Assembly: GCA_043751835.1 (NCBI GenBank) | Contig: JAYUZK010000009.1 | Coordinates: 1-32,768 of the forward strand | Length of the DNA: 32,768 bases | Direction of reading: 5' to 3' | Source: Gemmatimonadota bacterium | GTDB lineage: Bacteria; Gemmatimonadota; Gemmatimonadetes; Gemmatimonadales; GWC2-71-9 | In this document: in pieces, positions 5,577 to 31,837 of the stretch | Layout: each line of letters opens with the position of its first letter | Position numbering within the stretch: the stretch's first letter is position 1 | Translations under genes and position numbers: made by a program | The notes under the pieces: generated by a model | Told to the model about the DNA's origin: nothing | The model's database searches: none | Seen by the model: the letters and a program-made list of their open reading frames with translations, nothing else

Positions 5577-7796
5577 ATGCCGGTGCCTAACCTCTGCTGG
5601 TGGCTCAAAATCGTCCGGGGTCTCCGGGCCAATTCTCCGGTCGGCCTCTGGCTGGCCGGCGCGGCGTTGCCGCTCGCCGCCGGACGACCGCTGACGGCCC
5701 AGATCCAATCCGGCACCTTGGTCGTTACGGTGCGGCGGGAGGATTCGACCCTGCTGCGGGGCGCGTTTGTTCGCGCCGATCGGATCGGTGCCACGACCGA
5801 CGCCGCGGGGTTGGCCCGCCTCGAACTCCCGGCCCGGTTGGTAACCATCGCGGTCTCCCATCCTGGATATGTGCCCCGGGTTTTTGAAATCACGATCCTG
5901 CCGGCGCTGTCCCAACGGTTCGATCTCTTGCTGGAACGGGAAACCGCCGCAACGCGACGGGTCTACACCGGCCGAACCATCGACAGCGCCGGCGGGTCGC
6001 CGCGTCAGGTCCAAACCCTCGGCTCAGATGATCTCGACCTCGGCACCCAGATCCACCCCACTGATCTCACCCGTCTTATCCCGGCCGAATGGGGAGTTCG
6101 AGCCCAGCAGCAATCCGGGTCGCTCGATGGTACCCGGCTCCGCCTTGGAGGTTTGAGAGGTCAGTACACCGGAATCCTGGTCGACGGCTTGCCACTGCTG
6201 GGCCAGCAGCCGGGGGCGTTCGGCGCCCTGCATCTCGCCCCGTTCGAGTTCAGTCAAGCGGAACTGCTGTCGGGCGCGGCTGGAGCCATCTACGGGCCCG
6301 GGGCGGCCGCGGGGGTCATTAACCTCATTTCTCGTCGCCCGGAGCGCGATCAGGCCCGCCTCGGGATCAACCAGTCCTCGGAAAAGGGCGGGGACGTGAT
6401 GTTTTGGGGGGGCCGGCGTCAGTCGGCGACCGTGAGCGGATCATTGACCGCGAGTCTGCACCAGCAGCGCCTCGTCGATTCCGATGATGACGGCTGGGGC
6501 GAGTTTCCGAGAGCTATCAGCGTGGCGGTTCGGCCCCGCGTCTTCATCGAGCGCCCGAACGGTGATGCCCTGACCGGGACGGTTGGCTTCCTCTCGGAGG
6601 AGCGAGCCGGCGGCTATATCTCGACCAGCAATGGTGCCGATCTGTATCGAGAGGGGCGGCAGACGCAGCAAGCCGACGGTGCCGTGACGGCTTCGAAGAA
6701 CCTCGGCGGCGGCGCCACGCTTCGGTTCAACCTGACCACTGTGTTTCAGACCAACACGCACAAATTCGATGAGCGCCGGGAACGGGACCGCCGCGAGATG
6801 GTGGCGGGAGATGTCGCGTTGCTTCGTCCGATGGGGCCGGGACTCCTGGTCTTCGGCATCGGTTACTGGCATGACGCGTTCCGCGAACGCGATCTCCCCC
6901 TCTTCGACTATACGGCCAGCGTTCCCGGCGTGTTCGCCGAGCTTTCGGCCCCGCTTGGGGAACGAGTTCGTGCCGTGGTGGCGGGCCGGTGCGACCAGCA
7001 CAACGTGCACGGCCTGCAGTGCGTTCCTCGGCTTGATCTGCGGTATCGATCGGCGGCCGGGATCGATGTCTCGGCGTACGGCGGCCTCAGCTATACCTCG
7101 CCGATTCCGCTGACCGACGAGGTCGAGACCCTTGGCCTCGCTGGAACCGCTCCAGTCGGTCTCAAGGCCGAGCGGCTCGGCTCGGCGGGCTTCGTGGTGG
7201 AGCGTCAGTCCAGGCGATGGGACATCCGGATCGCCACGGGCTATGACCGGATCGGCCTTCCGCTTCGCCTGGTCCCTCTCGCCGGCGACCCGGCGAGCCG
7301 GCTTCGGTTGCTCAACGTGCTGGAGCCGACGCGGGTCTTTTCGGCCTCGCTGGTGGTCGGCTACCGTTCGGGCCGCGTCTCGGTCCGATCGTTCTACCGA
7401 TTTCAGGACGCCACCGAAGGAGTTCCGGAATCGGCCGGGCGGCGCCAGTCTGACCTGACGCCTCGCCACCAACTCGGCGCCACGCTCAACTGGCGTGCCC
7501 CGACCGGCGCGGGTACCGAGATCCAGGTCGAGGGGATCTACGTTGGTAGACAGGCCCTCACCGACAATCCATTTCGGGCTTATTCGCCTGTCTACTCGCT
7601 TGGGAACGCACTGATTTCGCAGCGGTCGGGGCGGGCTCGGATCTATCTCAGCGCGGAAAATCTGTTCGACAAGAAGCTGCGAGCGTACGAGCCCGTGGTA
7701 TTTCCGGTCCCAGGGCTTGCTGGTCGCCGCACAGCCTCGCCGTGGGTGCCCGTTCGGGGACGGGAGATCAGTCTCGGCGCAATAGTTGACTGGTAG
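5577..7796 (+). CDS. TonB-dependent outer-membrane receptor with N-terminal carboxypeptidase-regulatory-like domain
   Basis: ORF 5400..7796 (+). The start is trimmed to MPVPNL..., after the MFS stop, followed by signal-like LWLAGAALPLAAGRPLTAQ. Plug-like motifs are LRLGGLRGQYTGILVDGLPL and GAAAGVINLISRRP. A long beta-barrel-like region follows, with a C-terminal aromatic residue (..AIVDW). Confidence 0.75.
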   Translation: MPVPNLCWWLKIVRGLRANSPVGLWLAGAALPLAAGRPLTAQIQSGTLVVTVRREDSTLLRGAFVRADRIGATTDAAGLARLELPARLVTIAVSHPGYVPRVFEITILPALSQRFDLLLERETAATRRVYTGRTIDSAGGSPRQVQTLGSDDLDLGTQIHPTDLTRLIPAEWGVRAQQQSGSLDGTRLRLGGLRGQYTGILVDGLPLLGQQPGAFGALHLAPFEFSQAELLSGAAGAIYGPGAAAGVINLISRRPERDQARLGINQSSEKGGDVMFWGGRRQSATVSGSLTASLHQQRLVDSDDDGWGEFPRAISVAVRPRVFIERPNGDALTGTVGFLSEERAGGYISTSNGADLYREGRQTQQADGAVTASKNLGGGATLRFNLTTVFQTNTHKFDERRERDRREMVAGDVALLRPMGPGLLVFGIGYWHDAFRERDLPLFDYTASVPGVFAELSAPLGERVRAVVAGRCDQHNVHGLQCVPRLDLRYRSAAGIDVSAYGGLSYTSPIPLTDEVETLGLAGTAPVGLKAERLGSAGFVVERQSRRWDIRIATGYDRIGLPLRLVPLAGDPASRLRLLNVLEPTRVFSASLVVGYRSGRVSVRSFYRFQDATEGVPESAGRRQSDLTPRHQLGATLNWRAPTGAGTEIQVEGIYVGRQALTDNPFRAYSPVYSLGNALISQRSGRARIYLSAENLFDKKLRAYEPVVFPVPGLAGRRTASPWVPVRGREISLGAIVDW

Positions 7797-7805
7797 ACGT
7801 CCTTC

Positions 7806-9776
<1,971 letters not shown>

Positions 9777-9815
9777 GGACGGCAGCGATGAATCTCATGC
9801 CCGGGGTTGGGCCGG

Positions 9816-11831
9816 TCAAGGACGACGGCGCTTGGCGACCTCCTTCTTGGCGTCTTCGTGGCCCTGCACGGCGGCACGATCCAGCCACTGAAGTCCGACC
9901 TCTTCGTCTTTGGCCAGACCGCCCCGGCCCCGGATGTACATCATGCCAAACTGATATTCGGCTCCCGGGTGGCCCTGTTCGGCAGCCTTGCTGAACCATT
10001 TCGCCGCTTCCTGCTCGTTCTTCTCGACACCGCGCCCGCGGGTGAACATCTCGCCGAGGTTGTACTGGGCCGCCCGGTTACCCGCTTCGGCAGCGCGGCG
10101 ATACCAATTGGCGGCGTCCTGATCGCTCCGCTTGGTGCCAAGACCCTGTTCGAATCGTTCCGCCAACAGGGGCCAGGCCTCTTCGACACCGCCCTCGGCC
10201 GCCTTGCGAATGAGGGCGGTCGCCTCAACGTCGTTCTGCGTGATACCGGTGCCGGTGGCGTACATCACGCCCAGGCGGAAGGTGGACTGACCGTCGCCCC
10301 CGGCAGCGGCCTTCCGATACCAGACCGCCGCCGCTGAATCCGAGCGATCGACTCCGGTGCCTTTCTGATACAGGATCGCCAGGGCCCGGCTGGCCGCCGC
10401 GCTGCCCCGATCGCCCTCCGCTCCGCACAACTTGACCGCTTCGGTCCATTTCCGGGCCGAGATGGCGATCTGGCAATTGAGGGCGGCCAACGTCGGTTCC
10501 GGCTTGGCCGCGGTCGTTGAGGCGGGCGCATCCGACTTCTTCGGGGGCGCCTTCGGAACCGCGACCGTCGGGCCAGGCGGCGGAACCACGGGTGGGCCGG
10601 GCGTGGGTCCGGCCGGGACGACGGCGCTGGGCTGCGGGGGTATGGGCGCCGGGATGGCGGTCGCCGGTCCGCCGGCGCGGTTTCGGCTCACCAGGATGGC
10701 GATGACCACGACTCCGACGGCCCCGGCCAGCGGAAGGAAGCGTCCCCCCTTTTTGGGCTCGGCCGGCCGGTCATTGGCCGCGGTCGGCCGGGGCACCGGG
10801 GCGGTGACCATCTCTGTCACCGTCGCGCCTAACGGAAGCGTGTCGGGGCCCGAAATGGCTTCGGCGAACGCCGCCATCGACGGGAACCGTTCCTTGGGAT
10901 CCTTCGCGAGCGCGCGGTCGACGGCGAACGCAACCGGGGCTGGCACGTCGGGCACCAGGTCGCGGAGACTCTTGGGGACACCGACCATCTGCTGGAACAG
11001 AACCGCCCGGGTCGACTCCCCGTCGAAGGGCAGCGAACCGGTGATCATCTGGAACCCCACCACAGCCAGCGAGTACTGATCGCTTCGATGGTCGAGATGG
11101 GTGTCGCCCGCCGCCTGCTCGGGACTCATGTAGTGAGGCGTGCCGACCAGCATGCCGGTACTCGTAAGGCCTGGCGTGGAGTCGCTGGTATCAATGGCTT
11201 TGGCGATTCCGAAATCCATCAGCTGGACCCGTCGCCCCTTGCCCTCGAGCATGATGTTTTCGGGCTTGATGTCCCGGTGCACGACGCCCGCTTCGTGGGC
11301 GGCCTCGAGGGCGTCAGCGGCTTCGAGCAGAATGCGGCCGGCTTCGCGGGCCGGTCGCGGTCCCTCCCGATGAAGGAGGGCGCGGAGGCTCTCGCCCTGG
11401 ATCAACGGCATCAGGATGTAGGCGATTCCAGCGGCCTCGCCAATGTCGTAGATCGGGACAATGTGGGGATGGCGAAGGGCCGCGACCGTTTCGGCCTCGC
11501 GCCGAAACCGGGTGAGGAGCTGCTCCGACAACATCAGGTCCGGCCGGAGGGCCTTGAGAGCGAGGTCCCGTTTGAGGCGCTTGTCGTGCACCAGAAAGAC
11601 CTCGGCGAAGCCGCCCCGTCCGATCAGCTTGCCGAGCTCGTAGTTCCCGCCGAGGGCCTGCTGAAGCCGAGCCTTGTCGGAGGTGGCAACCCGATCTGCG
11701 TTGTAAGTCTTGATCTCACCCGTATTCTTGTCGATGGCCTGCGGCGTTTGGGTGCCGCACATCATGCAGAAGGCGGCCTCCATCGGCAGGGGATGGGCGC
11801 ACGAAGGACAGGTCTTGGCGGTCGCTGACAC
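9816..11831 (-). CDS. Ser/Thr protein kinase paralog: zinc ribbon + Hanks kinase + TM + Sel1-repeat ectodomain
   Basis: Zinc ribbon CPSCAHPLPMEAAFCMMCG. Kinase motifs are GRGGFAEV, ALKAL, HRDIKPEN, DFG and SPEQ. A TM segment (FLPLAGAVGVVVIAILV) and a Pro-rich linker follow. There are at least 4 Sel1-like repeats (AAVWYRKAAAGGD, AANWYRRAAEAGN, AAKWFSKAAEQGH, GLQWLDRAAVQGH). Confidence 0.9.
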   Translation of the reverse strand: MSATAKTCPSCAHPLPMEAAFCMMCGTQTPQAIDKNTGEIKTYNADRVATSDKARLQQALGGNYELGKLIGRGGFAEVFLVHDKRLKRDLALKALRPDLMLSEQLLTRFRREAETVAALRHPHIVPIYDIGEAAGIAYILMPLIQGESLRALLHREGPRPAREAGRILLEAADALEAAHEAGVVHRDIKPENIMLEGKGRRVQLMDFGIAKAIDTSDSTPGLTSTGMLVGTPHYMSPEQAAGDTHLDHRSDQYSLAVVGFQMITGSLPFDGESTRAVLFQQMVGVPKSLRDLVPDVPAPVAFAVDRALAKDPKERFPSMAAFAEAISGPDTLPLGATVTEMVTAPVPRPTAANDRPAEPKKGGRFLPLAGAVGVVVIAILVSRNRAGGPATAIPAPIPPQPSAVVPAGPTPGPPVVPPPGPTVAVPKAPPKKSDAPASTTAAKPEPTLAALNCQIAISARKWTEAVKLCGAEGDRGSAAASRALAILYQKGTGVDRSDSAAAVWYRKAAAGGDGQSTFRLGVMYATGTGITQNDVEATALIRKAAEGGVEEAWPLLAERFEQGLGTKRSDQDAANWYRRAAEAGNRAAQYNLGEMFTRGRGVEKNEQEAAKWFSKAAEQGHPGAEYQFGMMYIRGRGGLAKDEEVGLQWLDRAAVQGHEDAKKEVAKRRRP

Positions 11832-14482: not shown

Positions 14483-14707
14483 TCAGAGCTTGAGAATCCG
14501 CCGATCGTCAACGTCGAGCATGATCAGCGACCCGATCGTGCGCGCCATCATGCCGGACCCGAGGAAGGAGAGACTCTTGTTGATGGGGAAGGCTCCGCTC
14601 CAGATCGCCCCAAGAGTCACGGCGATCGCGGCGGCCGACAGGGTCGAGAGTGGGCCCTCGGGATCCCAGGTCTTCGACGTGGTCCAAAGGTGCCCCGCGA
14701 ACGGCAT
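14483..14707 (-). CDS. Small hypothetical membrane protein (74 aa)
   Basis: This is the only ORF in the 430-bp spacer with genome-typical codon bias. I read its codons by hand, and the large majority end in G/C. There is one clear hydrophobic segment (LSAAAIAVTLGAIWSGAF). It is co-oriented with lepB and lies upstream of it. I recognise no homology. Confidence 0.35.
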   Translation of the reverse strand: MPFAGHLWTTSKTWDPEGPLSTLSAAAIAVTLGAIWSGAFPINKSLSFLGSGMMARTIGSLIMLDVDDRRILKL

Positions 14708-14838: not shown

Positions 14839-16653
14839 ATGGCGATACCCCGGCGCGTCCTCGGTTTGATCGGGCTCACCCTGAGCCTCGGCTGTGGCAA
14901 ACCCGAAGCGGCCGGAACCCTCATCAACATGACCGACAACCAGTTCAGCGGCTCGGTGGCCAGGGTCCCGGTTGGAACCCGGGTCACGTTCCTGAACGGC
15001 GGGCGGAGCGTCCACAACGCGACCGCCGTTGACGGCAGCTGGAAGAGCGGCGACGTTGCGGCTCACTCTTCCGGGGGAGGGCGCGGCGGCGACGTCGTGT
15101 TCGATAAGCCCGGCGTCTACAAATACTATTGCATTTATCACGGCACCAAAGACGGCCGGGGGATGGCCGGGGTCGTGGTCGTTGGCGGCGCGAGCTATAG
15201 CCCGAGCGCCCGGGGGGCCATCGCCGCGGTCGACAGCGCGACGGGCGTCGTGCGCCGCGTGCCGGCTGCGTATCCCACGATTCAGGCGGCGGTGGATGCC
15301 GCCGCCCCCGGCGACCTGGTCCTCGTCGACCGGGGCGTCTACCGGGAGGAGGTCACGGTCACCACCCCCTCGCTGGTAATCCGGGGTGTTGATCGCAACG
15401 AGACCATCATCGACGGCGAGTTCGTGCGGGGCAATGGAATTACGGTGCTTGCCGACGCGGTGGCCGTCGAGAACATGACCGCCCGGAACGCCCTCCTCAA
15501 CGGCTTCTTCTGGACCGGCGTTACGGGCTTCCGCGGCTCCTACCTCACCGCCTACAACAACGGAGACTACGGCATTTACGCCTTCGGCGCGAAGGACGGG
15601 GTGTTCGAAGACTCGTATGCGTCGGGTTCGCCGGACTCCGGTTTCTACATCGGCCAGTGCTATCCCTGCCGGATCGTGATCCGCCACGTTGTAGCCGAGC
15701 GCAACGGGCTCGGCTTTTCGGGCACGAACGCGGGCGGGCAACTCTATCTTGTGAGCTCGGTCTGGCGGAACAACCGGGCCGGCATCGTGCCGTCGTCGCT
15801 CGACATCGAGCTCGATCCACCCCAGCGCGACGCTGTGTTCGCGGCCAACCTCGTGATCGACAACAACAATGCCGCGGCGCCGGCGATCCCGATCAATTCG
15901 GTGGCGTTCGGGAATGGCATCCTGCTGGCGGGATCGGTACGGGACACCGTCGTTCGCAACGTGGTGCTCGATCACGCCGGCCACGGGATCGTGACGAGTC
16001 CGCTGCAGGATCGCAATTATTACCCGGCCATCGACAACGTGATCCGGGACAATATCGTGCTGGGATCGGGGCGGGCCGACCTTGCCAACGCCGGGCCCGG
16101 TGAGTCCGGTAACTGTTTCTCGGGCAACGAGCACCGCACCGCGATTCCGTTCGGACTCGAGGCCGCTCGCGGCTGCCTCGGGCTTCGGATGCCATGGTGG
16201 TCCGATTGGGTCCCGTTCGGAACGGTGTTCGTCCGGGCGCTCCAACTCGGCGAGTCGTTTCCTGACTGGAAGACCCAGCCAGCCCCGCCGCCCCAGCCGG
16301 GCATGGAGACGCCGGAGGCCGCGCCGGTCCGGATCGCGAGCCACGTCTTCGAGACACTTCATTTTGATCTCGCCGCGGCAACATTGCCGGCTGGCACCGA
16401 TTCGATCGTGGCGGCCTGGCGGGGTGGTGTGATCGGCCGAGACCGGACGCCGGGATGGTTCGGCCGGATCGGAGCCAACGCCGCGTTCCTCATCGGCCCG
16501 CTGGTGGTGTTCTGGTGGCTGATGCGGGTCCTTCGATCGAGGAAAGTGCCCGCGGAACGGGTCTGGCGGCGCCGTCTGGCAACCCTGGCGACCGGCCTGA
16601 TCGCCTGGGTCGCGGTGGTCGGGCTCAGCATCTGGTACTACAGCCGGATCTGA
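14839..16653 (+). CDS. Membrane-anchored cupredoxin + right-handed parallel beta-helix (NosD-like) protein
   Basis: ORF 14650..16653 (+), trimmed to MAIPRRVLGLIGLTLSLGCGK (signal peptide with a possible lipobox). The cupredoxin domain has type-1 Cu ligand spacing (SVHNAT ... YYCIYHGTKDGRGM). The NosD-type beta-helix begins PTIQAAVDAAAPGDLVLVDRGVYREEVTVTTPSLVIRG, followed by repeated N/G-rich turns. Two C-terminal TM helices are separated by an Arg-rich loop. Confidence 0.8.
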   Translation: MAIPRRVLGLIGLTLSLGCGKPEAAGTLINMTDNQFSGSVARVPVGTRVTFLNGGRSVHNATAVDGSWKSGDVAAHSSGGGRGGDVVFDKPGVYKYYCIYHGTKDGRGMAGVVVVGGASYSPSARGAIAAVDSATGVVRRVPAAYPTIQAAVDAAAPGDLVLVDRGVYREEVTVTTPSLVIRGVDRNETIIDGEFVRGNGITVLADAVAVENMTARNALLNGFFWTGVTGFRGSYLTAYNNGDYGIYAFGAKDGVFEDSYASGSPDSGFYIGQCYPCRIVIRHVVAERNGLGFSGTNAGGQLYLVSSVWRNNRAGIVPSSLDIELDPPQRDAVFAANLVIDNNNAAAPAIPINSVAFGNGILLAGSVRDTVVRNVVLDHAGHGIVTSPLQDRNYYPAIDNVIRDNIVLGSGRADLANAGPGESGNCFSGNEHRTAIPFGLEAARGCLGLRMPWWSDWVPFGTVFVRALQLGESFPDWKTQPAPPPQPGMETPEAAPVRIASHVFETLHFDLAAATLPAGTDSIVAAWRGGVIGRDRTPGWFGRIGANAAFLIGPLVVFWWLMRVLRSRKVPAERVWRRRLATLATGLIAWVAVVGLSIWYYSRI

Positions 16654-16656
16654 ACC

Positions 16657-17640
16657 GTGCTGCTCACGCGTCGAGATCTCGTACTCCTGGGCGGCGGCGT
16701 GACGGCTGGCGCCGGAGCCCTGCTTGGTCGCGACGCCTGGCTCGCCCGGGCTCAGGCTACCTCCGGGCTCGTCCCACCGAGGCCGACGGCACAGCGCTAT
16801 GGACACGGCGCCATGCCTCCGAACGAACTCGGACCGCTCAGCCTGGACCAGGCCACCCGGCCCTCAAAACCCGATCCCCGGTCCGGTCGGACGACCCGGC
16901 GAATCATCCTCGAAGTGGTCGACCAAACCGTCGGGATCTCGGTCGATCGGAGCTTCGACGCCTGGACTTTCGGCGGAACCGTTCCCGGCCCGACGTTGCG
17001 CGCCAACGAGGGGGATGCGCTCGAGATCACGCTGCGGAATCGAACCGGCCACGCCCACAACCTCCATTTTCACGGCAACCACGAGATCGAGGCGGACGGC
17101 TGGGAGCCCGTTCCCCCGGGCGGCGAGGCCGTGTATCGGTTGACGGCGGGTCCCTTCGGCGTGCATCCCTACCATTGTGATTTCACTCCCAGCGAAGATC
17201 ACATCGCCAACGGCCTCTATGGGCTGCTGATCGTCGATCCGCCAGAGTCCCGGCAACCGGCTGAGGAAGTGGTACTCGTGCTCTGCGGGTTCGATGTTGA
17301 CGGCGACGGAAACAGCGACCTGTTCGGCTGGAACGGACCGACCGGTTTCTACGCCAAGTACCCCATCAAGGTCGAGTCTGGCCGACTCGTCCGGGCGTAC
17401 GTCGCCAATTTCGTCGCCGATGTGCCGGTGGCGTCATTCCATCTTCACGCCCAGATGTTCGACGTCTACCGGAACGGCACTCGGCGCGAACCCGACGAAC
17501 GCACCGATGTGCTTTCCCTCGCCCCGGCTGAGCGGGCCATGATCGAATTCCGCCTGCCCCGGCGAGGGCGCTACATGTTCCACCCCCATCAGCGATTTCT
17601 GGCGGAACACGGCGCCATGGGTTGGTTCAGCGCCGTCTGA
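16657..17640 (+). CDS. TAT-exported two-domain cupredoxin protein, NirK / two-domain multicopper oxidase-like
   Basis: GTG start 3 nt after the upstream stop. Twin-arginine signal MLLTRRDLVLLGGG. Motifs are FGGTVPGPTLRANEGDALEITLRN, HNLHFHG, HPYHCD...DHIANGLYGLLIVDP, FHLHAQ and YMFHPHQRFLAEHGA. Confidence 0.85.
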   Translation: MLLTRRDLVLLGGGVTAGAGALLGRDAWLARAQATSGLVPPRPTAQRYGHGAMPPNELGPLSLDQATRPSKPDPRSGRTTRRIILEVVDQTVGISVDRSFDAWTFGGTVPGPTLRANEGDALEITLRNRTGHAHNLHFHGNHEIEADGWEPVPPGGEAVYRLTAGPFGVHPYHCDFTPSEDHIANGLYGLLIVDPPESRQPAEEVVLVLCGFDVDGDGNSDLFGWNGPTGFYAKYPIKVESGRLVRAYVANFVADVPVASFHLHAQMFDVYRNGTRREPDERTDVLSLAPAERAMIEFRLPRRGRYMFHPHQRFLAEHGAMGWFSAV

Positions 17641-17765
17641 CCCGGCATTCCTTCCCACATCACTTTGCTACCGAGATGGATCGCCAGGATTGGTGTAGGG
17701 GTTCCCGGCCCCGGTGGTTGTCACTCCCCGCTCATCAAATCAACTGCCTGCAAAGGAGGAACGGA

Positions 17766-18128
17766 ATGCGCCGTTCGATCTTGGTCGTGAGTTCGCTGTT
17801 GCTGATGGCTGCTTGTGGAGCCAGCACTCCAGATCCCATTTCTCCGCCGCCGCCCCCCCCGCCCCCCCCGCCGGCAAACTCCGTGTTGGTGAGTTCGAAC
17901 CAGTTTTCTCCGGCGCAACTGACGACCAGCAGCGGCTCGACCGTCACTTGGACTTGGCAGGGCGGTATCCACAACCTGACGTTTGAGGACAACGTGGGCA
18001 ATGCCGCTGACATGACCAGCGGCACCCACGCCCGCACGTTCAACGCCGCCGCCACGTTCCGATATCGTTGTACCAACCACTCCTCGAACTTTACCAGCGG
18101 GATGAGCGGATCGGTTGTGGTGCAGTAG
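17766..18128 (+). CDS. Blue-copper (cupredoxin) lipoprotein with polyproline tether
   Basis: ORF 17622..18128 (+), trimmed to the ATG at 17766, which is preceded by a strong Shine-Dalgarno sequence (AAAGGAGGA, 17752-17760). Signal plus lipobox MRRSILVVSSLLLMAAC. Ten consecutive Pro residues. Type-1 Cu ligands are IHNLTF ... YRCTNHSSNFTSGM, the same C-x2-H-x7-M spacing as the cupredoxin domain of the 14839 gene. Confidence 0.85.
   Translation: MRRSILVVSSLLLMAACGASTPDPISPPPPPPPPPPANSVLVSSNQFSPAQLTTSSGSTVTWTWQGGIHNLTFEDNVGNAADMTSGTHARTFNAAATFRYRCTNHSSNFTSGMSGSVVVQ
17844..17873 (+). repeat. Poly-proline coding tract containing two C8 homopolymer runs
   Basis: Read directly: ccg ccg ccg ccc ccc ccg ccc ccc ccg ccg. 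The C8 runs are at 17853-17860 and 17862-17869, separated by a single G. Confidence 0.9.
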
Positions 18129-18147: not shown

Positions 18148-18180
18148 AAACGGGGTCGGCTCGCAGAGCCAACCCCGTTT
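18148..18180. terminator. Bidirectional intrinsic terminator hairpin between convergent genes
   Basis: AAACGGGGTCGGCTC-GCA-GAGCCAACCCCGTTT forms a 14-bp stem with one C/A mismatch and a 3-nt loop. A/T-rich flanks are partly inside the stem on both strands. It lies between the cupredoxin stop (18128) and the ahcY stop (18201). Confidence 0.6.
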
Positions 18181-18200: not shown

Positions 18201-19691
18201 CTAATAGCGGTAGTGATCCGGCTTGTAGGGCCCCTGGGGCTTCACTCCGATGTAAGCCGCCTGTTCGGCGGTCAACCGGGTCAACTTCGCGCCAAGCTTG
18301 TCGAGGTGGAGGCGCGCCACCTTCTCGTCGAGGTGCTTGGGCAGGACGTACACCTGCTTCCCGTACTGGCCGGCGTTCAGGTGCAGCTCGAGCTGGGCCA
18401 TCACCTGATTGGTGAAGCTCGCTGACATCACGAAGCTGGGATGTCCGGTAGCGCAACCGAGATTCAGCAGCCTGCCCTCGGCCAGAATCATCACGCTGTG
18501 CCCATCCGGGAACACCCACTCGTCGTACTGTGGTTTGATGTTGATCCGCTTGATCCCCTTGATCTTCTTGAGGCCGGCCATGTCGATCTCGTTGTCGAAA
18601 TGGCCGATGTTCCCGACGATGGCCTTGTCCTTCATCCGCGCCATGTGATCGGCGGTGATGATGTTGAAGTTGCCGGTCGCCGTGATGAAAATGTCGGCCG
18701 AGGAGATCACGTCCTCGATCGTCAGCACCTGATACCCTTCCATCGCCGCCTGAAGCGCGCAGATCGGGTCGATTTCTGTCACCACCACCCTCGCGCCCTG
18801 GCCGCGAAGGGCCTGCGCGCACCCTTTGCCGACCTCGCCGAACCCGAAGACAACAGTGAGCTTGCCGGAGATCATGACGTCACTGGCCCGGTTGAGTCCA
18901 TCGATGACTGAGTGCCGGCATCCGTAGATGTTGTCGAATTTCGACTTGGTAACCGAGTCGTTGACGTTGATCGCCGGGAACAACAGGGTTCCCGCCTTCA
19001 TCATCTCGTAGAGCCGGTGGACGCCTGTGGTCGTCTCCTCGGAGACACCCCGAATGTCCGCCGCGACCTTGGTCCATCGTCCCGGGTTTTTCTTGGCCTC
19101 GGCTCGCAGCAGGTCGAGGATGACCCCCCATTCCTCCGGGTCGCTCTCGGGTTTGAAGGCCGGAATGGCGCCCGCCTTCTCGTATTCAGCGCCCTTGTGC
19201 ACGAGCATGGTCGCGTCCCCGCCGTCGTCGAGCAGCAGGTTCGGCCCCGAGCCGTCAGGCCACATCATCGCCTGCTCCGTGCACCACCAGTACTCCTCGA
19301 GGGTTTCGCCCTTCCAGGCGTACACCGGCGTCCCTCTCGGATGGTCAGGGGTGCCGTTTCTGCCAACGACCGCGGCGGCTGCCGCATGATCCTGAGTCGA
19401 GAAGATGTTGCAGGACACCCAGCGGACGTCGGCGCCGAGCTCGGTCAGGGTCTCGATCAGGACGGCCGTTTGCACGGTCATGTGCAGCGATCCCATGACC
19501 CGGGCACCGGCCAGCGGCTTCGTGTCCCGGTGCTCGGCCCGAATTGCCATCAGGCCCGGCATTTCCTGCTCCGCCAGACGGATTTCCTTGCGACCAAACT
19601 CGGCCTCGCCAAGGTCACGGACCTTGAACGGGGGCCGACCGGCGGTCTTGGCGGCGTCGAAGGGGTGCAGGTCCAGCGCGGTGGTTGCCAC
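18201..19691 (-). CDS. ahcY: Adenosylhomocysteinase (S-adenosyl-L-homocysteine hydrolase), long form
   Basis: The 496-aa protein is unmistakable: [58 protein letters not shown] (NAD site), HFDNEID and the C-terminal YRY. Confidence 0.95.
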
Positions 19692-19693
19692 GA

Positions 19694-20650
19694 TCAGGTT
19701 CTCCCGGTGAGTGAGTTTTTCTTGGCCGAGGCCACGAACAGCAGCGGCCCCTTGGCCGACGGCTGCGGCGGTAGTCCTCGGTATGCCCCTGTTTCAAGGC
19801 CAGCGTCTTCGAACCAGCGACCGATCGTTTCCGCCTCGAAGCCAAGCCACTGATGCCCAACAGTCTCACGATAATCAGTGTGCTCGTGCGGCATCATATC
19901 GGCGACGATCAGGCGGCCTCGCGGTTTGAGCGCTCGACTCGCCTCGCGGATGGCGAGCGCCGGCTCGGCGAGGTGGTGGAGTACCAGCACGATCAGGGCG
20001 AGATCGAGCGACCCGGTCTCGATCGGCAGGGTTTCGAGCGTTCCAAGGCGGAGTTCGATGTTGGCACAGTGGTCGAGCCGCTGACGAGCGGCCGCGAGCA
20101 TCGCCGGCGATTCGTCAACCGCGATGACCCGTGCCACAAACGGCGCGAGGCCGGCGGCCAGCTGTCCGGTGCCGGCACCCAGATCGCCGACCACCCAGTC
20201 GGGTTCGAGCAGGCCGCCCAGTGCCATCCAATTGATGGCGCTGCCGAAGAGTTCGACTCGGAGTCGGTCCCAGTCGCCGGCGCTCGTCGCGAAAAATTCC
20301 TGGCTTCGCGAGTGACGGCCGGAAAGGACAGCGCGGACTCGCTCGGCATCCCGCCGAGCCGCCGTACCACCCGCGAACTGGTTCCGAACGACATCCCAGA
20401 GCTGGCGAGCGTCAGGTTCGAGTGCGGTCGGGTTCAAGCGGTACCAATTGCTCGAGCCGTTCGCCCGGCTGGAGATCCAGCCGTCATCGCTGAGAACCCG
20501 GAGATGCCGGCTGACGGTCGATTGAGGAAGCTGGACGGCCTGACACAGTTCGTTGACCGCGAGCTCCTGGCTTTCCAACAGCAAAAGGAGCCGGCACCGG
20601 GTGGCGTCGGACAGGGCGCTGAGGCGGGAAAAAAGCGGCGCTGTTGTCAT
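19694..20650 (-). CDS. ArsR-family HTH regulator fused to a class I SAM-methyltransferase-fold domain (SahR-like)
   Basis: The N-terminal winged HTH ([44 protein letters not shown]) is ArsR type. The C-terminal domain carries methyltransferase motif [17 protein letters not shown]. Its stop codon lies 2 nt before the ahcY start. Confidence 0.8.
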
Positions 20651-25446: not shown

Positions 25447-26034
25447 TTAGACCTTTTCCCATTCGCGTTCGATCTCGTCCGCGGCACGCTTCAGAATTTC
25501 CACGATTCGCGGCACCGCCGGGTGGTCGCCGCCCGAGCGCCAGGCCCGCTTGTAGGTCAATCCGGCGAGTCGGGTGAAGGTGTGGTTGAGGTCCGCCATG
25601 TGACCGCCGGCGAAGTCCCGCACCGTGTCGCGGACCCGATCGAAGATGTCGTCGAGCAGGTCGCGGTTCTCGTCCAGAAACTGCTCGCCTTCGGGTGTGA
25701 TGTGATAGACTTTCTTGCCCTCCTCCTCCACCGCGCGGACGTATCCCTGGTCTTCGAGCAGTTGCAGGGTAGGGTAGACGGTTCCGGCCGACGCGGTGTA
25801 GCATCCGCGGAGACGTTCCTCGAGCGCCTTGATCACGTCATAACCGTGGCGAGGTTTCTCCCGGAGCAATCGGAGAATCACGAACTTCACTTCGCCTGAT
25901 TCAAACATCTGGCGGCGGCGGCGGCCCCAATTGCGCTGACCTCCAGGTCCTCCGAAACGGAATGCCAACTTGCTGGGGTCGAAATCAAACCCGAATAGCT
26001 TGCCTAAGCCCCAGTCATCAAAGTCTTTAGCCAT
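25447..26034 (-). CDS. PadR family transcriptional regulator
   Basis: The winged-helix core VILRLLREKPRHGYDVIKALEERLRGCYTASAGTVYPTLQLLEDQGYV is diagnostic of PadR. There is a ~45-aa Gly/Arg-rich N-terminal extension and a C-terminal helical domain. Confidence 0.9.
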   Translation of the reverse strand: MAKDFDDWGLGKLFGFDFDPSKLAFRFGGPGGQRNWGRRRRQMFESGEVKFVILRLLREKPRHGYDVIKALEERLRGCYTASAGTVYPTLQLLEDQGYVRAVEEEGKKVYHITPEGEQFLDENRDLLDDIFDRVRDTVRDFAGGHMADLNHTFTRLAGLTYKRAWRSGGDHPAVPRIVEILKRAADEIEREWEKV

Positions 26035-26077
26035 TTTAAAATATCCTTCCCGAGAACGATGGTGAGCGGCGACAATA

Positions 26078-26152
26078 ACATGTCGTACAATGTATCATAC
26101 GATATATCGTACGATAGGTTTCGATATATGTCAAGATATATCGTCAGATATA
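26078..26152. promoter_or_regulatory. AT-rich divergent control region with palindromes and phased GATATA repeats
   Basis: Read directly: ACATGT (26078-26083); inverted repeat TCGTA-N10-TACGA (26083-26102); perfect 14-bp palindrome TACGATATATCGTA (26098-26111); inverted repeat CGATATAT-N6-ATATATCG (26122-26143). GATATA occurs at 26101, 26123, 26135 and 26147, with degenerate GATAGG at 26113, so spacing is 10-12 bp. Confidence 0.5.
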
Positions 26153-26195
26153 ACTTATCGTTCCACTGTGGAACTGATCGACTCTTCATCCCCGT

Positions 26196-26630
26196 ATGCG
26201 GGCGTTGTTTCCAGCGAATACGTCGTCCAGTTCCACTTTCACGCGGAGGTGCCCCGCGTTCGTTCTCTCCAAGTCCGTTGCGATCACCGCGACATTCCTG
26301 ACCCGGTCGCTGGTGATTCCGGCGATCGGCATGGTGATCGTGTGCCAGTTGATCTGGCACGTCACGCCAGTGGCCACCCACTTTCCCGAGGCAATCGGGA
26401 TTCAGGCCCTCCACCAGACGTTCTACATCTCGCTCACGCTCATCCTTCCCAACCTGATCCCCCAATGGATCGTGGTGGCCATGCCGTGGAGCTTGGCGTC
26501 GGCTGCGGCGTCGATTGCGGTTTGGCAGCCGATCCCGGCCCCGCTGTGGATTCCCGCGCTGGCCACGGCCGGCTGGACCGTTCTGGTCCTCGTCGTCGCG
26601 CTCTGGCGGTTCGGGTGGGAGGAGTTCTAG
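26196..26630 (+). CDS. Small polytopic membrane protein, unknown function
   Basis: A 144-aa ORF with high GC3 when read by hand, especially from the internal Met at 26331. It has 3-4 hydrophobic segments (VIPAIGMVIVCQLIW, FYISLTLILPNLIPQWIVVAM, LWIPALATAGWTVLVLVVALW). It is divergent from padR. The start is uncertain. Confidence 0.5.
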   Translation: MRALFPANTSSSSTFTRRCPAFVLSKSVAITATFLTRSLVIPAIGMVIVCQLIWHVTPVATHFPEAIGIQALHQTFYISLTLILPNLIPQWIVVAMPWSLASAAASIAVWQPIPAPLWIPALATAGWTVLVLVVALWRFGWEEF

Positions 26631-26685
26631 CGCCGCGCCTCGCCTTGCGAAACACCTGACCGGCCCAGAGATTCGGGGCGGCCGG

Positions 26686-28572
26686 ATGTTCCAACCAGGA
26701 GTGGCGCTCATGTTTCTGGATACGCTTCTACATCCATTGCGATGGTTCGGTGGAGCCGCCGCGGTTTCGATCCTGTTCGTCTCCGGCGGGGCGGCCCAGG
26801 ATGTTCGTCCCGACTACGTCAAGCGAACCGAAATGATCCGGATGCGCGACGGCGTCCTGCTCTACACGGAAATCTTCACCCCCGCCCACCAGGCCGGCCC
26901 GCTCCCGGTCCTGATGGAGCGCACGCCGTACAATGCCGCCCTGATCGGGCCCCGGCTTTCCAATCGCTACAAGCTCCTGGCAGACGACGCCTACATCTTC
27001 GTCTTCCAGGATGTTCGCGGCAAATACCAGTCCGAGGGAACCTTCGTGATGATCCGGCCACCTCGCGATCCGAAGCGAGGCGAAACGGTCGACGAAGGGA
27101 GCGATACCAACGACACCATCGACTGGCTTCTCAAGAATCTGCCCGGTCACAACGGCCGAGTGGGCATGGTGGGGATCTCCTACGGCGGCTGGCTCACCAT
27201 GATGGCGCTGGTGGATCCGCACCCGGCGCTCAAGGCCGTGTCGCCTCAGGCATCTCCCGACGACATGTACCTCGGCGACGATTTCCACCACAACGGGACG
27301 TTCCGCCTGAGCTATGGCTTCGAATACGTGGCGAGCCTGGAGGCCGGGCGGATCAGTGAACCCTGGCGTTTTGACCGGGCGGATACCTTCGAATGGTTCC
27401 TCAGGCTCGGCGGTCTGGCCAACGCCGATACTCGCTACTTCAAGGGCCAGCGGCCCACCTGGACCGATTTCGTCAATCATCCGAACTTCGATGAATTCTG
27501 GCAGCGCCGGAAGGTGAGTCCGGTGTTTGCTCACAAGCCGGTGACCGTGCCGACGCTGACGGTGGCGGGCTGGTGGGATCAGGAAGATTTCTATGGTCCG
27601 CTGACGATCTATCAGGCGATGGAACCGAACGACACGAAGGGCATCAACCACATCGTGATCGGCCCCTGGAACCACGGCGGCTGGGCCCGCGGAGACGGGA
27701 ACACACTGGGCCCGATTCAGTTCGGGACCAATGCCTCGGCCTGGTTTCGTGAGACGGTCGAAGGCCCCTGGTTCGCGTACTGGCTCAAGGATTGGGGCAC
27801 CCTCGACCTTCCCGAAGCGCTGACCTTCCGGGCCGGCGACAACACCTGGCAGCGTCACGACCATTGGCCGCCCCGGAGCGGGGTCTCGGCCAAGTCGCTC
27901 TATCTCCAGCCGGATGGCGGGCTCGGCTGGGAGGTTCCGCGGAGCGGCGCCGCGTTCTCCTCCTATGTATCCGATCCGAATCGTCCGGTGCCGTACCGGC
28001 GACGCCCGGTCACGCCGCTGTACGGGGGCAAGGTGCCTTCGACCTGGCCGTTGTGGGAGGTGGACGATCAGCGACACGCTCACCTTCGGCCGGACGTCCT
28101 CTCCTTCGATTCCGGAATGCTTGCCGATGACGTCACGATCTCGGGCCAAGTGACGGCGCGGCTCTTCGCGGCGACCACGGGTACCGATGCCGACTGGGTC
28201 GTCAAGCTGATCGACGTCTATCCGGAAGACGTGCCGGCGGATCCCATGATGGGCGGCTATCAGCTGATGGTGGTCAACGACGTCTTTCGGGCCCGCTTCC
28301 GAAAGAGCTACGAGCACCCAGCGCCGGTGGTCGCGAATCAGGTGGCGCCCTATACGGTCGACCTCCACGCGGCCGATTACACTTTCAAGAAGGGCCATCG
28401 CATCATGGTCCAGATCCAGAGCAGCTGGTTTCCGCTGATCGACCGGAACCCCCAGCGGTTTGTCTCCAACATCTTCCTCGCCAAGGACGTCGATTTCATG
28501 ACGGCAACCCAACGGATCTATCACTCGGCGCCCTATCCCAGCCGCATCGACGTGTCGGTGGTGAATCGGTGA
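26686..28572 (+). CDS. Secreted CocE/NonD family hydrolase (peptidase S15 / Xaa-Pro dipeptidyl-peptidase-like), paralog A
   Basis: ORF 26515..28572 (+). The start is at ATG 26686 or ATG 26710 (MFLDTLLHPLRWFGGAAAVSILFVSGGAAQ signal). Motifs are RTPYNA, the nucleophile elbow GISYGGW, GPWNHGG, and a C-terminal jelly-roll (HAADYTFKKGHRIMVQIQSSWFPLIDRNPQ). Confidence 0.9.
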   Translation: MFQPGVALMFLDTLLHPLRWFGGAAAVSILFVSGGAAQDVRPDYVKRTEMIRMRDGVLLYTEIFTPAHQAGPLPVLMERTPYNAALIGPRLSNRYKLLADDAYIFVFQDVRGKYQSEGTFVMIRPPRDPKRGETVDEGSDTNDTIDWLLKNLPGHNGRVGMVGISYGGWLTMMALVDPHPALKAVSPQASPDDMYLGDDFHHNGTFRLSYGFEYVASLEAGRISEPWRFDRADTFEWFLRLGGLANADTRYFKGQRPTWTDFVNHPNFDEFWQRRKVSPVFAHKPVTVPTLTVAGWWDQEDFYGPLTIYQAMEPNDTKGINHIVIGPWNHGGWARGDGNTLGPIQFGTNASAWFRETVEGPWFAYWLKDWGTLDLPEALTFRAGDNTWQRHDHWPPRSGVSAKSLYLQPDGGLGWEVPRSGAAFSSYVSDPNRPVPYRRRPVTPLYGGKVPSTWPLWEVDDQRHAHLRPDVLSFDSGMLADDVTISGQVTARLFAATTGTDADWVVKLIDVYPEDVPADPMMGGYQLMVVNDVFRARFRKSYEHPAPVVANQVAPYTVDLHAADYTFKKGHRIMVQIQSSWFPLIDRNPQRFVSNIFLAKDVDFMTATQRIYHSAPYPSRIDVSVVNR

Positions 28573-31813: not shown

Positions 31814-31837
31814 ACTCCTCCATCGGGGAATCACTCC

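Follow-up and report, generated by a model that had tools for sequence, protein, structure and literature searches.

A conserved gene pair for a beta-helix cupredoxin protein and a two-domain multicopper oxidase: a candidate extracytoplasmic copper redox module in Gemmatimonadota and other bacteria

In the nitrite reductase NirK, a small blue-copper protein such as pseudoazurin hands electrons over to the type-1 site of domain 1. Nmar_1354 from Nitrosopumilus maritimus (archaeal MCO4, 9CCK) is a hydroxylamine-to-nitroxyl oxidase that holds a pendant cupredoxin, situated 13.5 Å from the type-1 site of the oxidase (PMC11761707). Another two-domain protein, 3GDC from Arthrobacter sp., is a type C structural-genomics entry for which no function was found, and 3GDC-like oxidases are located in plasmid metal-resistance islands (PMC8556283). 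The locus described here, from a Gemmatimonadota bacterium, encodes a two-domain oxidase next to a cupredoxin fused to a beta-helix. No paper describing this pair was found in the literature, in agreement with a previous sequence-only reading of this DNA, which did not recognise the arrangement as any characterised system; genes 1 and 2 constitute an uncharacterised copper-protein pair.

The locus lies in a stretch of 32,768 nucleotides (the window; contig JAYUZK010000009.1) and consists of three genes on the + strand. Gene 1 (14839..16653, 604 aa), delimited by its ORF and Pfam matches, encodes a membrane-anchored cupredoxin/beta-helix protein; gene 2 (16657..17640, 327 aa, GTG start), a type-C two-domain multicopper oxidase with a Tat signal; and gene 3 (17766..18128, 120 aa), a lipoprotein cupredoxin. 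The ORF coordinates leave gaps of 3 nt between genes 1 and 2 and of 125 nt between genes 2 and 3, confirming the co-orientation and minimal spacing claimed by the sequence-only reading, and identical public contigs carry matching gene calls for the three genes. The neighbors of the gene 1/gene 2 pair in the window are the housekeeping genes efp, lepB, and ahcY. As the same reading had stated, nosZ, nosF, and nosY were looked for in the window and none was found. Its strong bidirectional terminator stands in part. A GC-rich 15-bp hairpin (18148..18180), placed where gene 3 and ahcY converge, is stable on both strands (−31.1 kcal/mol, z −2.25, on the + strand; −33.3 kcal/mol, z −3.55, on the − strand), and is probably a two-way terminator; however, its U-tracts are weak and a consensus terminator scanner did not flag it.

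Species genomes were scanned with the gene 2 oxidase, and the 80 closest loci were examined. A lack of synteny in other genomes had been set beforehand as refuting a functional unit; for genes 1 and 2 the outcome is decisively the opposite, as in 79 of these loci a beta-helix gene is found immediately upstream of the oxidase gene, on the same strand. The loci come from at least six phyla, comprising Gemmatimonadota, Actinomycetota, Acidobacteriota, Chloroflexota, Myxococcota/Desulfobacterota, and Leptospira. In most lineages, roughly 6–40 nt separate the stop of the beta-helix gene from the start of the oxidase gene. The cupredoxin occurs in two arrangements: it forms one protein with the beta-helix, or it is a lipoprotein whose separate gene immediately precedes that of the beta-helix. 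Since this adjacency extends over many bacterial phyla, genes 1 and 2 probably function together. The divergence of the two genes is also correlated (r 0.86, pairwise, 61 loci), which may merely reflect the shared species phylogeny. One close relative (L011/L091) lacks genes 1 and 3 but keeps the oxidase at the equivalent chromosomal position, and the oxidase can therefore persist alone. A gene for a SCO1/SenC copper chaperone follows the oxidase gene, in the same operon, in six loci, which shows that copper supply matters to the module. No further conserved neighbor of the pair was found in the 80 loci.

The conserved unit thus comprises genes 1 and 2 rather than the whole trio that had been regarded as one system: among the 80 loci, gene 3 homologues occur only in the closest relatives (L001, L002, and L005–L008), and gene 3 is a lineage-specific add-on. 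Its product was correctly described as a lipoprotein cupredoxin on a 10-proline tether, with a lipobox LMAAC, exactly ten consecutive prolines (residues 27–36, nt 17844–17873), and a PF00127 match of 29.5 bits (cut-off 21.2), and its type-1 ligands are read from the sequence as H69, C102, H105, and M113. The translations also confirm that the cupredoxins of genes 1 and 3 have in common a C-x2-H-x7-M ligand loop and an NQFS start; they share 31% identity (E 8e-8).

The product of gene 2 holds the two features that had been attributed to it, a Tat signal and two cupredoxin domains. A twin-arginine signal is read at its N-terminus (16657..16755, +; T-R-R-D-L-V at residues 4–9), where the motif precedes a hydrophobic stretch (MLLTRRDLVLLGGGVTAGAGALLG), and most of the 80 homologous loci encode an S/T-R-R-x-L-L motif. 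On the basis of this predicted signal, the protein would be Tat-exported. The two cupredoxin domains, which together take up ~300 residues, match Cu-oxidase_3 and Cu-oxidase_2 (E 3e-16 and 4e-20). Domain 1 bears H134-N-L-H137-F-H139 (17056..17073, +), which provides a type-1 copper His and two His of the trinuclear cluster, and H173-C174-D175...H182...L187 (17173..17217, +), a type-1 Cys/His loop with an axial Leu. Domain 2 contributes the cluster ligands H262-L-H264 (17440..17448, +) and H309-P-H311 (17581..17589, +). In alignment A1, the first motif, both domain-2 motifs, and the type-1 ligands H134, C174, and H182 are invariant; the H-P-H of domain 2 lacks a Cys, and this domain therefore has no type-1 site. 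The trinuclear cluster comprises seven invariant His in the same alignment (H137, H139, H173, H262, H264, H309, and H311), the remaining position of the eight-His criterion being occupied by Asp175, opposite a His of 3GDC in the HMMER alignment. Among the top 120 oxidase homologues, 97 hold HCD, 22 HCH, and one HCE, and HCD in place of HCH is the form of the Gemmatimonadota oxidases. The gene 2 product is a type-C two-domain multicopper oxidase and, by analogy with 3GDC and 9CCK, would form an O2-reducing homotrimer with inter-subunit clusters.

The kinship of this protein with NirK and two-domain multicopper oxidases, proposed from the sequence, holds for the latter and, for NirK, at the level of a fold match. 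As a NirK, gene 2 was rejected: TIGR02376 reaches 80.2 bits, against a cut-off of 296.3, with only the first domain aligned, and H134-N-L-H137-F-H139 is not H-x-x-D-x-H, with extra H-x-H pairs in domain 2. By NirK residue numbering, His137 would lie at the position of the NirK catalytic Asp (H-x-x-D-x-H). The protein falls outside the clades of characterised laccases and NirK, with a structural-genomics entry, 3GDC, as its top match (41% identity).

Gene 1 starts with a signal peptide ending at Cys19 (14839..14895, +), as read from the sequence and from the conservation of this residue (at least 90% in 40 homologues). The claimed lipobox fared less well, as SLGC is non-canonical, and a lipobox-like motif was found in 95 of 120 homologues with a deliberately loosened pattern; this N-terminus is probably a lipoprotein signal. 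The type-1 cupredoxin of the plastocyanin/amicyanin family that follows (residues 26–115; 14914..15183, +) is fully supported, with a PF00127 score of 24.1 bits over a gathering cut-off of 21.2 and a complete ligand set (H59, C98, H101, and M109) that is invariant in all 74 sequences compared across phyla. Pattern matching detected a C-x2-H-x7/8-M loop in 69 of these 74 sequences. The top PDB match of the domain is 5FC9, and its profile also matches the pendant cupredoxin of Nmar_1354 (E 6e-8). At the other end of the protein, the two helices noticed in the translation are reproduced by AlphaFold (mean pLDDT 88 for the whole model) as a hairpin of residues 540–603 (16456..16647, +; helices 540–569 and 572–603), which is probably a two-helix membrane anchor. 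The C-terminal tails of gene 1-type proteins hold two to four hydrophobic segments in nearly all lineages, and Pfam assigns this tail to PF13396 (PLDc_N) in relatives.

The central part of gene 1 (residues 138–430; 15250..16128, +) is a right-handed parallel beta-helix of the CASH type, as indicated by PF13229 (Beta_helix, E 4e-11), the strand pattern of the model, and Foldseek, which matches it to AlgE4/AlgE6, AlgG, and alginate and pectate lyases. The resemblance to NosD that had been claimed for it is weak. Pfam NosD (PF05048) gives 18.1–19.9 bits, under its cut-off of 23.6, and TIGR04247 (NosD) gives 35.2 bits against a cut-off of 300, spanning the first 70 residues of the region; alginate epimerases, lyases, and tailspikes make up the top 50 Foldseek matches, with no NosD among them, and a PDB search with the sequence profile of the domain did not retrieve NosD either. 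At E<0.01, Pfam NosD does detect 21 of 22 family members (6e-13 for the best of them), and some exceed the Pfam cut-off. The beta-helix is thus a generic CASH-type fold whose NosD likeness is not specific. A turn of this helix carries a G-Q-C-Y-P-C motif (15652..15669, +). All 79 aligned sequences keep its C274 and C277, which are among the many residues of the beta-helix that are invariant across phyla. The Cys motif is absent in haloarchaeal homologues without an oxidase neighbor, and the fold therefore has some function independent of a redox partner.

A branch of the beta-helix family from Streptomyces adjoins the gene of a Tat-exported Dyp haem peroxidase. This system resembles the present one in that a lipoprotein beta-helix, 41% identical over 83% of the gene 1 domain, is encoded beside an exported oxidoreductase, and the G-Q-C-x-P-C motif is found in all 120 Dyp-linked homologues. 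However, the Streptomyces protein has neither a cupredoxin nor the C-terminal membrane hairpin, its partner is a haem enzyme, and the genes are divergently oriented. In annotations, this uncharacterised lipoprotein is sometimes automatically named NosD. Because a haem peroxidase requires no insertion of copper, the pairing with it speaks against a copper-insertion role of the family and weakens the earlier view of the beta-helix as a maturation partner; it fits better with a role in donor handling or as a partner than with copper delivery.

As the likeliest but still tentative proposal, which may well turn out otherwise, genes 1 and 2 would encode a conserved extracytoplasmic copper redox module, in which the cupredoxin of the beta-helix partner feeds electrons to an O2-reducing oxidase. 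Gene 1 would be the dedicated, membrane-tethered partner of the oxidase. Its cupredoxin, which has an axial Met and probably a lower potential, would pass electrons to the type-1 copper of oxidase domain 1, the putative entry site, probably of high potential because of its axial Leu, in the manner of pseudoazurin with NirK and of the fused cupredoxin in the archaeal oxidase Nmar_1354; from here they would reach the inter-subunit trinuclear copper cluster, where O2 would be reduced to water. The beta-helix groove, with its invariant residues and G-x-C-x-P-C, may bind the electron donor or itself be the donor, the candidates being a dithiol, a bound metal ion, or a group attached to a polymer. 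Gene 3 would provide an additional tethered cupredoxin, acquired in this lineage only. The domain identities, intact copper ligand sets, export signals, anchors, and strict gene linkage across phyla are the observations from which we infer the direction of electron flow, a direct docking of both proteins, and any role of the beta-helix.

It is less likely, although not far-fetched, that gene 1 acts as a maturation or assembly factor, whose beta-helix, like NosD, would give the apo-oxidase a periplasmic docking platform after Tat export and fill its copper centres, with Cu(I) bound at C-x-P-C and the cupredoxin as a redox helper. The family-wide Pfam NosD matches, the TIGR04247 match, a possible binding of Cu(I) by the C-x-x-C pair, and SCO1/SenC in the operon of six loci are in line with this, as is the Tat export of the oxidase, since NosZ and CueO are also copper enzymes metallated after export. 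Nevertheless, the NosD scores of gene 1 stay under the curated cut-offs, the structural and profile searches return no NosD, no nosF/nosY-like ABC genes are present in the window, no other neighbor is conserved in the 80 loci, and one relative keeps the oxidase without its partner. A complete type-1 site strictly kept in 74 of 74 sequences would be unexpected for a chaperone, and the haem peroxidase pairing points the same way.

Somewhat more doubtful is a role in copper detoxification, where the two proteins would form a CueO-like cuprous oxidase pair and the C-x-P-C groove would take periplasmic Cu(I) and present it for oxidation to Cu(II). Bacterial periplasmic multicopper oxidases commonly act as cuprous oxidases, and the Cys pair could bind Cu(I). 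Related 3GDC-like oxidases do occur on plasmids, in metal-resistance islands (PMC8556283), but they represent a different subfamily (~40% identity) with a metal transporter and without the beta-helix. Across the 80 loci, the pair has no conserved metal gene beside it, be it a copper-responsive regulator, an efflux pump, or another; here it is found among housekeeping genes, and the conserved cupredoxin would be left unexplained. An assignment to nitrogen-oxide chemistry, with gene 2 as a nitrite reductase or an Nmar_1354-like hydroxylamine oxidase and the cupredoxins as electron partners, appears improbable. JGI labels many homologues 'nitrite reductase (NO-forming)', the gene 2 model strongly matches the fold of NirK structures, and one relative with a pendant cupredoxin, Nmar_1354, converts hydroxylamine to nitroxyl (PMC11761707); even so, the TIGR02376 score is far below its cut-off, His137 would stand in place of the NirK Asp, the near-complete trinuclear ligand set is of the oxidase rather than the NirK type, and nitrogen-cycle genes are absent from the window and none is conserved across the 80 loci. 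Oxidation of hydroxylamine may still be among the activities of the enzyme. Chance adjacency of functionally unrelated genes could be read from the oxidase that stands alone in one relative and from beta-helix family members without an oxidase, but synteny effectively refutes it and leaves it a negligible probability: 79 of 80 loci, drawn from at least six phyla, have the genes side by side and co-oriented, the gaps being short and the cupredoxin undergoing fusion or fission.

Compared with known systems, the electron-transfer module proposed here has its closest structural counterpart in 3GDC, which is the top sequence match of gene 2 (E 3e-58, 41% identity over 250 residues) and the top fold match of its model (TM 0.87), and has the same two cupredoxin domains, with a domain-1 type-1 site with an axial Leu and H-x-H motifs in domain 2; it differs in holding H-C-H instead of H-C-D. 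The plasmid-borne oxidases, at 38–45% identity to gene 2 (near the level of 3GDC), adjoin a 'metal transporter' and metal regulators, and have no beta-helix or cupredoxin partner. Nmar_1354, whose core strongly resembles gene 2 in sequence and fold and which is among its closest solved relatives, also combines a two-domain core with an extra cupredoxin near its own type-1 site (PMC11761707). However, the identity of the cores is only ~32%, the archaeal type-1 site has an axial Met (PMC11761707) where gene 2 has Leu, and no beta-helix partner accompanies it; its cupredoxin forms a C-terminal extension of the oxidase itself, whereas here it resides on a separate membrane-anchored beta-helix protein, with a free cupredoxin lipoprotein (gene 3) added in the lineage of the window. 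NirK, with pseudoazurin/azurin or with fused cupredoxin/cytochrome domains (2DV6, 6HBE, and 3ZIY), shares the trimeric two-cupredoxin-domain scaffold, but has a single type-2 copper with catalytic Asp/His, in contrast to the oxidase-type cluster ligands of gene 2. Finally, NosD, from the NosDFY–NosL system that serves N2O reductase, is likewise an extracytoplasmic CASH-type right-handed parallel beta-helix beside a Tat-exported copper enzyme, a fold common to many unrelated CASH proteins. Unlike NosD, gene 1 has no NosF/NosY ABC partner and no nosZ, and its beta-helix, which structural and profile searches do not link specifically to NosD and which belongs to a family that also pairs with a haem peroxidase, carries C-x-P-C and is fused to a type-1 cupredoxin.

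Genes 1 and 2, which encode a membrane-anchored cupredoxin/beta-helix protein (14839-16653, + strand, 604 aa) and a Tat-exported two-domain multicopper oxidase (16657-17640, + strand, 327 aa), form a pair that is conserved well outside the window. In GTDB, scanned with one genome per species, at least 599 stretches match the oxidase motifs YMFHPHQ and GAMGW, and at least 566 relatives were confirmed among the matches listed. The loci studied here are the best 80 of these confirmed relatives, each at least 48% identical, and their ORFs were searched with the domains of the window proteins. A beta-helix homologue lies directly upstream of the oxidase and on the same strand in 79 of the 80 loci, so that the sequence-only reading was right to expect genes 1 and 2 to be a syntenic unit elsewhere. 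These loci come from Gemmatimonadota, Acidimicrobiia, Nitriliruptoraceae, Acidobacteriota, Caldilineaceae, Myxococcota, Desulfobacterales, Leptospiraceae (including the cultured Leptospira gomenensis and L. ainazelensis), and one proteobacterial MAG. The beta-helix stop and the oxidase start are separated by 3 nt in the window and by roughly 6-40 nt in most lineages.

The cupredoxin is fused to the beta-helix in most lineages, and in Acidimicrobiia and Acidobacteriota it is encoded by its own lipoprotein gene immediately upstream; this alternation of fusion and fission is classic evidence for a functional link. Its four copper ligands are kept in all 74 of the 74 sequences compared, and a long ligand loop characterizes the family. 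Pairwise divergences of the oxidase and the beta-helix protein are correlated (r 0.86), which is consistent with co-inheritance, although shared phylogeny alone could yield the same value. Two Gemmatimonadales genomes hold two tandem paralogous cupredoxin/beta-helix genes before the oxidase (L009, 3756-7363; L010, 3719-7363). One close Gemmatimonadota relative (L011, the same as L091) shares the chromosomal neighborhood of the window, with a TonB receptor, two kinases, efp, DUF7790, ahcY, the ArsR-methyltransferase, and an amidase, and has kept only the oxidase of the cluster; at L091 5048-11299, a 355-aa gene and a peptidyl-prolyl isomerase stand in place of genes 1 and 3 and the signal peptidase.

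All-against-all clustering of the ORFs from the 80 loci revealed no universal third partner gene, and targeted searches added only two candidates: a small PLDc_N membrane gene, present in some lineages, and a SCO1/SenC copper chaperone gene 3' of the oxidase in six loci. The C-terminus of the beta-helix protein nearly always bears two to four hydrophobic segments, which in some of the proteins are recognized as PLDc_N, and in several lineages the small PLDc_N membrane gene separates the beta-helix gene from that of the oxidase. Leptospiraceae and a few others (L070, at 7527-7841 and 8904-9527, together with L042, L053, L062, L073, and L076) combine this inserted gene with SCO1/SenC after the oxidase. 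A small membrane gene is also found in Nitriliruptoraceae, Caldilineaceae, and L009/L010.

Gene 3 (17766-18128, + strand, 120 aa) encodes a lipoprotein cupredoxin with exactly ten prolines ahead of the cupredoxin domain, which is 31% identical to that of gene 1 and has the C-x2-H-x7-M loop in common with it. It follows gene 2 after 125 nt and has a strong ribosome-binding site (AGGAGG). The proposal that all three genes make up one system is not borne out by conservation for this gene, whose homologues are confined among the 80 loci to L001, L002, and L005-L008. Gene 3 is separated by 72 nt from a convergent S-adenosylhomocysteinase gene, and this spacer contains a 15-bp GC-rich hairpin (18148-18180, both strands) with folding energies of -31 kcal/mol on the + strand (z -2.3) and -33 kcal/mol on the - strand (z -3.6). 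The scan for consensus promoters and terminators missed this hairpin because its U-tracts are short, and found nothing useful upstream.

The window has a G+C content of about 65%, and the region is identical to metagenomic contigs, as long as 144 kb, on which the same gene 1 is found; close homologues are labeled as Gemmatimonadota or Gemmatimonadales. Rfam and tRNA scans of the window gave no matches. Divergent from gene 1 lies a 74-aa hydrophobic ORF (14483-14707, - strand), also called as a gene on the public contigs, which has no Pfam match and is not kept upstream of the pair in locus L003. Tandem genes for Ser/Thr protein kinases of about 655 aa with Sel1/TPR repeats (7806-11831, - strand) occupy the same position in the related genomes L001 and L091. 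On the other side (18201-20650, - strand), the S-adenosylhomocysteinase gene is directly followed by one for an ArsR-type HTH fused to a SAM-dependent methyltransferase, a pair also kept in L091. Four long candidate ORFs of 235, 598, 434, and 534 aa (26004-29837 and 30989-32593, all on the - strand) have no Pfam match at E<=1e-5.

The gene 1 protein begins with a signal peptide whose last residue is the conserved Cys19. Its AlphaFold model is confident (mean pLDDT 88, pTM 0.87) and comprises a cupredoxin of the plastocyanin family (PF00127; residues 26-115), a right-handed beta-helix (PF13229, E 4e-11; 138-430), a helical stretch, and a C-terminal helical hairpin (540-603). The beta-helix had earlier been described as NosD-like. 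However, NosD models score weakly and under their cut-offs, and NosD is absent from the top 50 Foldseek matches of the model in the PDB, which consist of mannuronan C5-epimerases, alginate and pectate lyases, AlgG, and phage tailspikes at 10-18% identity. Searches of the PDB with family sequence profiles returned no NosD either, their matches being limited to cupredoxins or to the cap at the N-terminus of pectinesterases. A specific kinship with NosD is thus rejected, and the beta-helix is a generic CASH-type fold.

C274 and C277, in a G-x-C-x-P-C turn, are invariant over 79 beta-helix sequences together with many other residues, among which Tyr, Asp, Glu, and Asn repeat at roughly one-coil spacing; to judge from this alignment, the invariant residues look like a functional groove. 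Among 1.8 billion representative proteins, a search yielded 322 beta-helix clusters (50% identity representatives, E<=1e-30), most of which hold the C-x-x-C pair whether or not a fused cupredoxin is present. In Streptomyces, a 41%-identical lipoprotein version, often auto-annotated as NosD there and in Actinacidiphila, holds G-Q-C-x-P-C in 120 of 120 homologues, and a divergent Tat-type Dyp haem peroxidase adjoins it in all three Streptomyces-type genomes examined. No literature on this lipoprotein/peroxidase pair was found. The Dyp-linked loci of Streptomyces and Actinacidiphila (L090, 4624-7218; L092, 5756-8356; L093, 1325-4056) continue with two further genes, one for a protein of some 250-290 aa and one for an SdrD_B-domain protein of some 840 aa. 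A Tat-signal beta-helix encoded on haloarchaeal megaplasmids is 47% identical and lacks the Cys pair, the cupredoxin, and an oxidase neighbor. These versions, from Haladaptatus and Natrinema (L088, 5893-7098; L089, 5890-7079), hold R-N-N-P-F-H in place of the Cys motif; the Haladaptatus gene lies downstream of DUF7344 and DUF7521 genes, and the Natrinema gene is apparently split by a frameshift.

The gene 2 protein holds a twin-arginine signal (T-R-R-D-L-V) and both cupredoxin domains of a multicopper oxidase. Its top solved relative is the Arthrobacter two-domain oxidase 3GDC (E 3e-58, 41% identity, TM 0.87), followed by the Marinithermus oxidase 7RAB and Nmar_1354 from Nitrosopumilus (9CCK), with NirK enzymes ranking after them. 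In an alignment of 21 oxidase homologues (A1), the predicted ligands are H134-x-x-H137-x-H139, H173-C174, H182, and L187 in domain 1, and H262-x-H264 and H309-x-H311 in domain 2. This is, by its residues, an oxidase-type pattern; since domain 2 lacks the Cys, the type-1 copper is assigned to domain 1 only, in a predicted type-C layout with an axial Leu. Membership in NirK is rejected on the basis of this pattern and of a NirK model score of 80 bits against a cut-off of 296.

Multicopper oxidases normally have a cluster-binding His next after their type-1 Cys (H-C-H). In gene 2 this position is Asp175 (H-C-D, residues 173-175, window 17173-17181), and the 120 closest homologues divide into 97 with HCD, one with HCE, and 22 with HCH. 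Among the genome loci, the acidic variants occur only in Gemmatimonadota (L001-L018, L023-L025, L029, L045, and L049, one of them H-C-E), whereas all other phyla and two Gemmatimonadota loci (L020 and L026) hold HCH. One His of the trinuclear cluster has therefore been exchanged for a carboxylate in the Gemmatimonadota oxidases, a natural change that is open to direct spectroscopic test.

What the sequence establishes is an oxidase with an export signal, in which the predicted electron-entry site is complete and the predicted cluster for O2 reduction nearly so. Its partner, probably membrane-tethered, is established as having a strictly conserved blue-copper site and tight genetic coupling to the oxidase. 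By analogy with NirK/pseudoazurin and with the pendant cupredoxin of Nmar_1354, an electron relay between both proteins is the simplest reading, and the model as a whole is given somewhat under an even chance. Electrons would pass from the partner cupredoxin (axial Met) to the type-1 site of the oxidase (axial Leu), and from there to the trinuclear cluster and O2. In this scheme, the groove of the beta-helix, together with its Cys pair, would be a candidate binding site for the electron donor, or the Cys pair itself might be oxidized. That members of this beta-helix family are also paired with a haem peroxidase argues against copper insertion and for donor handling. A NosD-like role of the beta-helix protein in maturation is unlikely. 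A cuprous oxidase or a function in copper homeostasis is a still weaker candidate, a nitrogen-oxide enzyme is improbable, and coincidental adjacency of the two genes is scarcely credible.

Beyond the electron relay, a broader proposal is that the G-Q-C-x-P-C beta-helix proteins are an unrecognized class of extracytoplasmic redox partners for Tat-exported oxidases, which is doubtful when taken jointly with all of its parts. These proteins would be the substrate-oxidizing or substrate-presenting subunit, and the true electron donor would be the Cys-lined groove or something bound there. In most phyla, a dedicated blue-copper domain would relay the electrons to a two-domain multicopper oxidase, which would pass them to O2; the Streptomyces proteins would act on behalf of the Dyp peroxidase; and in Gemmatimonadota the system would rely on a His7-Asp trinuclear copper cluster without precedent. 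If true, the proposal would add a new oxidase system of the periplasm or cell surface, with thiol/disulfide or envelope-polymer chemistry among its possible targets.

Full-text literature searches found no description of the oxidase/beta-helix pair, and public sources hold no names for the exact window proteins. The database labels of homologues, such as "plastocyanin", "nitrite reductase (NO-forming)", or "NosD", are generic or, in many cases, probably wrong. The component parts belong to known kinds; as far as can be told, what is new is how the genes are combined, the beta-helix partner with its Cys motif, and the exchange of a cluster His for Asp. The signature motif, in at least 566 species genomes, defines a sizeable oxidase subfamily, whose obligatory membrane-tethered blue-copper/beta-helix partner offers a concrete handle on the natural electron donor. 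The same donor question ties in the very common Streptomyces lipoprotein often mislabeled as NosD.

NirK-like (type C) two-domain multicopper oxidases are widespread and, to our knowledge, almost none has an assigned physiological role; Nmar_1354, the one studied, reportedly makes nitroxyl and N2O. The two type-1 coppers of Nmar_1354, one of them in its pendant cupredoxin, lie 13.5 A apart (PMC11761707). The 3GDC-like two-domain oxidases on plasmids of Rhodococcus, Rubrobacter, and Shinella are about 40% identical to gene 2, but they are accompanied by a metal-transporter partner and metal regulators instead of a beta-helix protein. In each of three such loci (L085, 6746-9072; L086, 6380-9072; L087, 6848-9192), the oxidase is followed by a gene annotated as "metal transporter", and these pairs adjoin MntR or other metal regulators, P-type ATPases, and SCO/PCuAC chaperones. 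These plasmid relatives were dismissed as a clue to the function of gene 2, being a different subfamily with a metal-transporter partner; the plasmid oxidase and its transporter are a distinct conserved pair.
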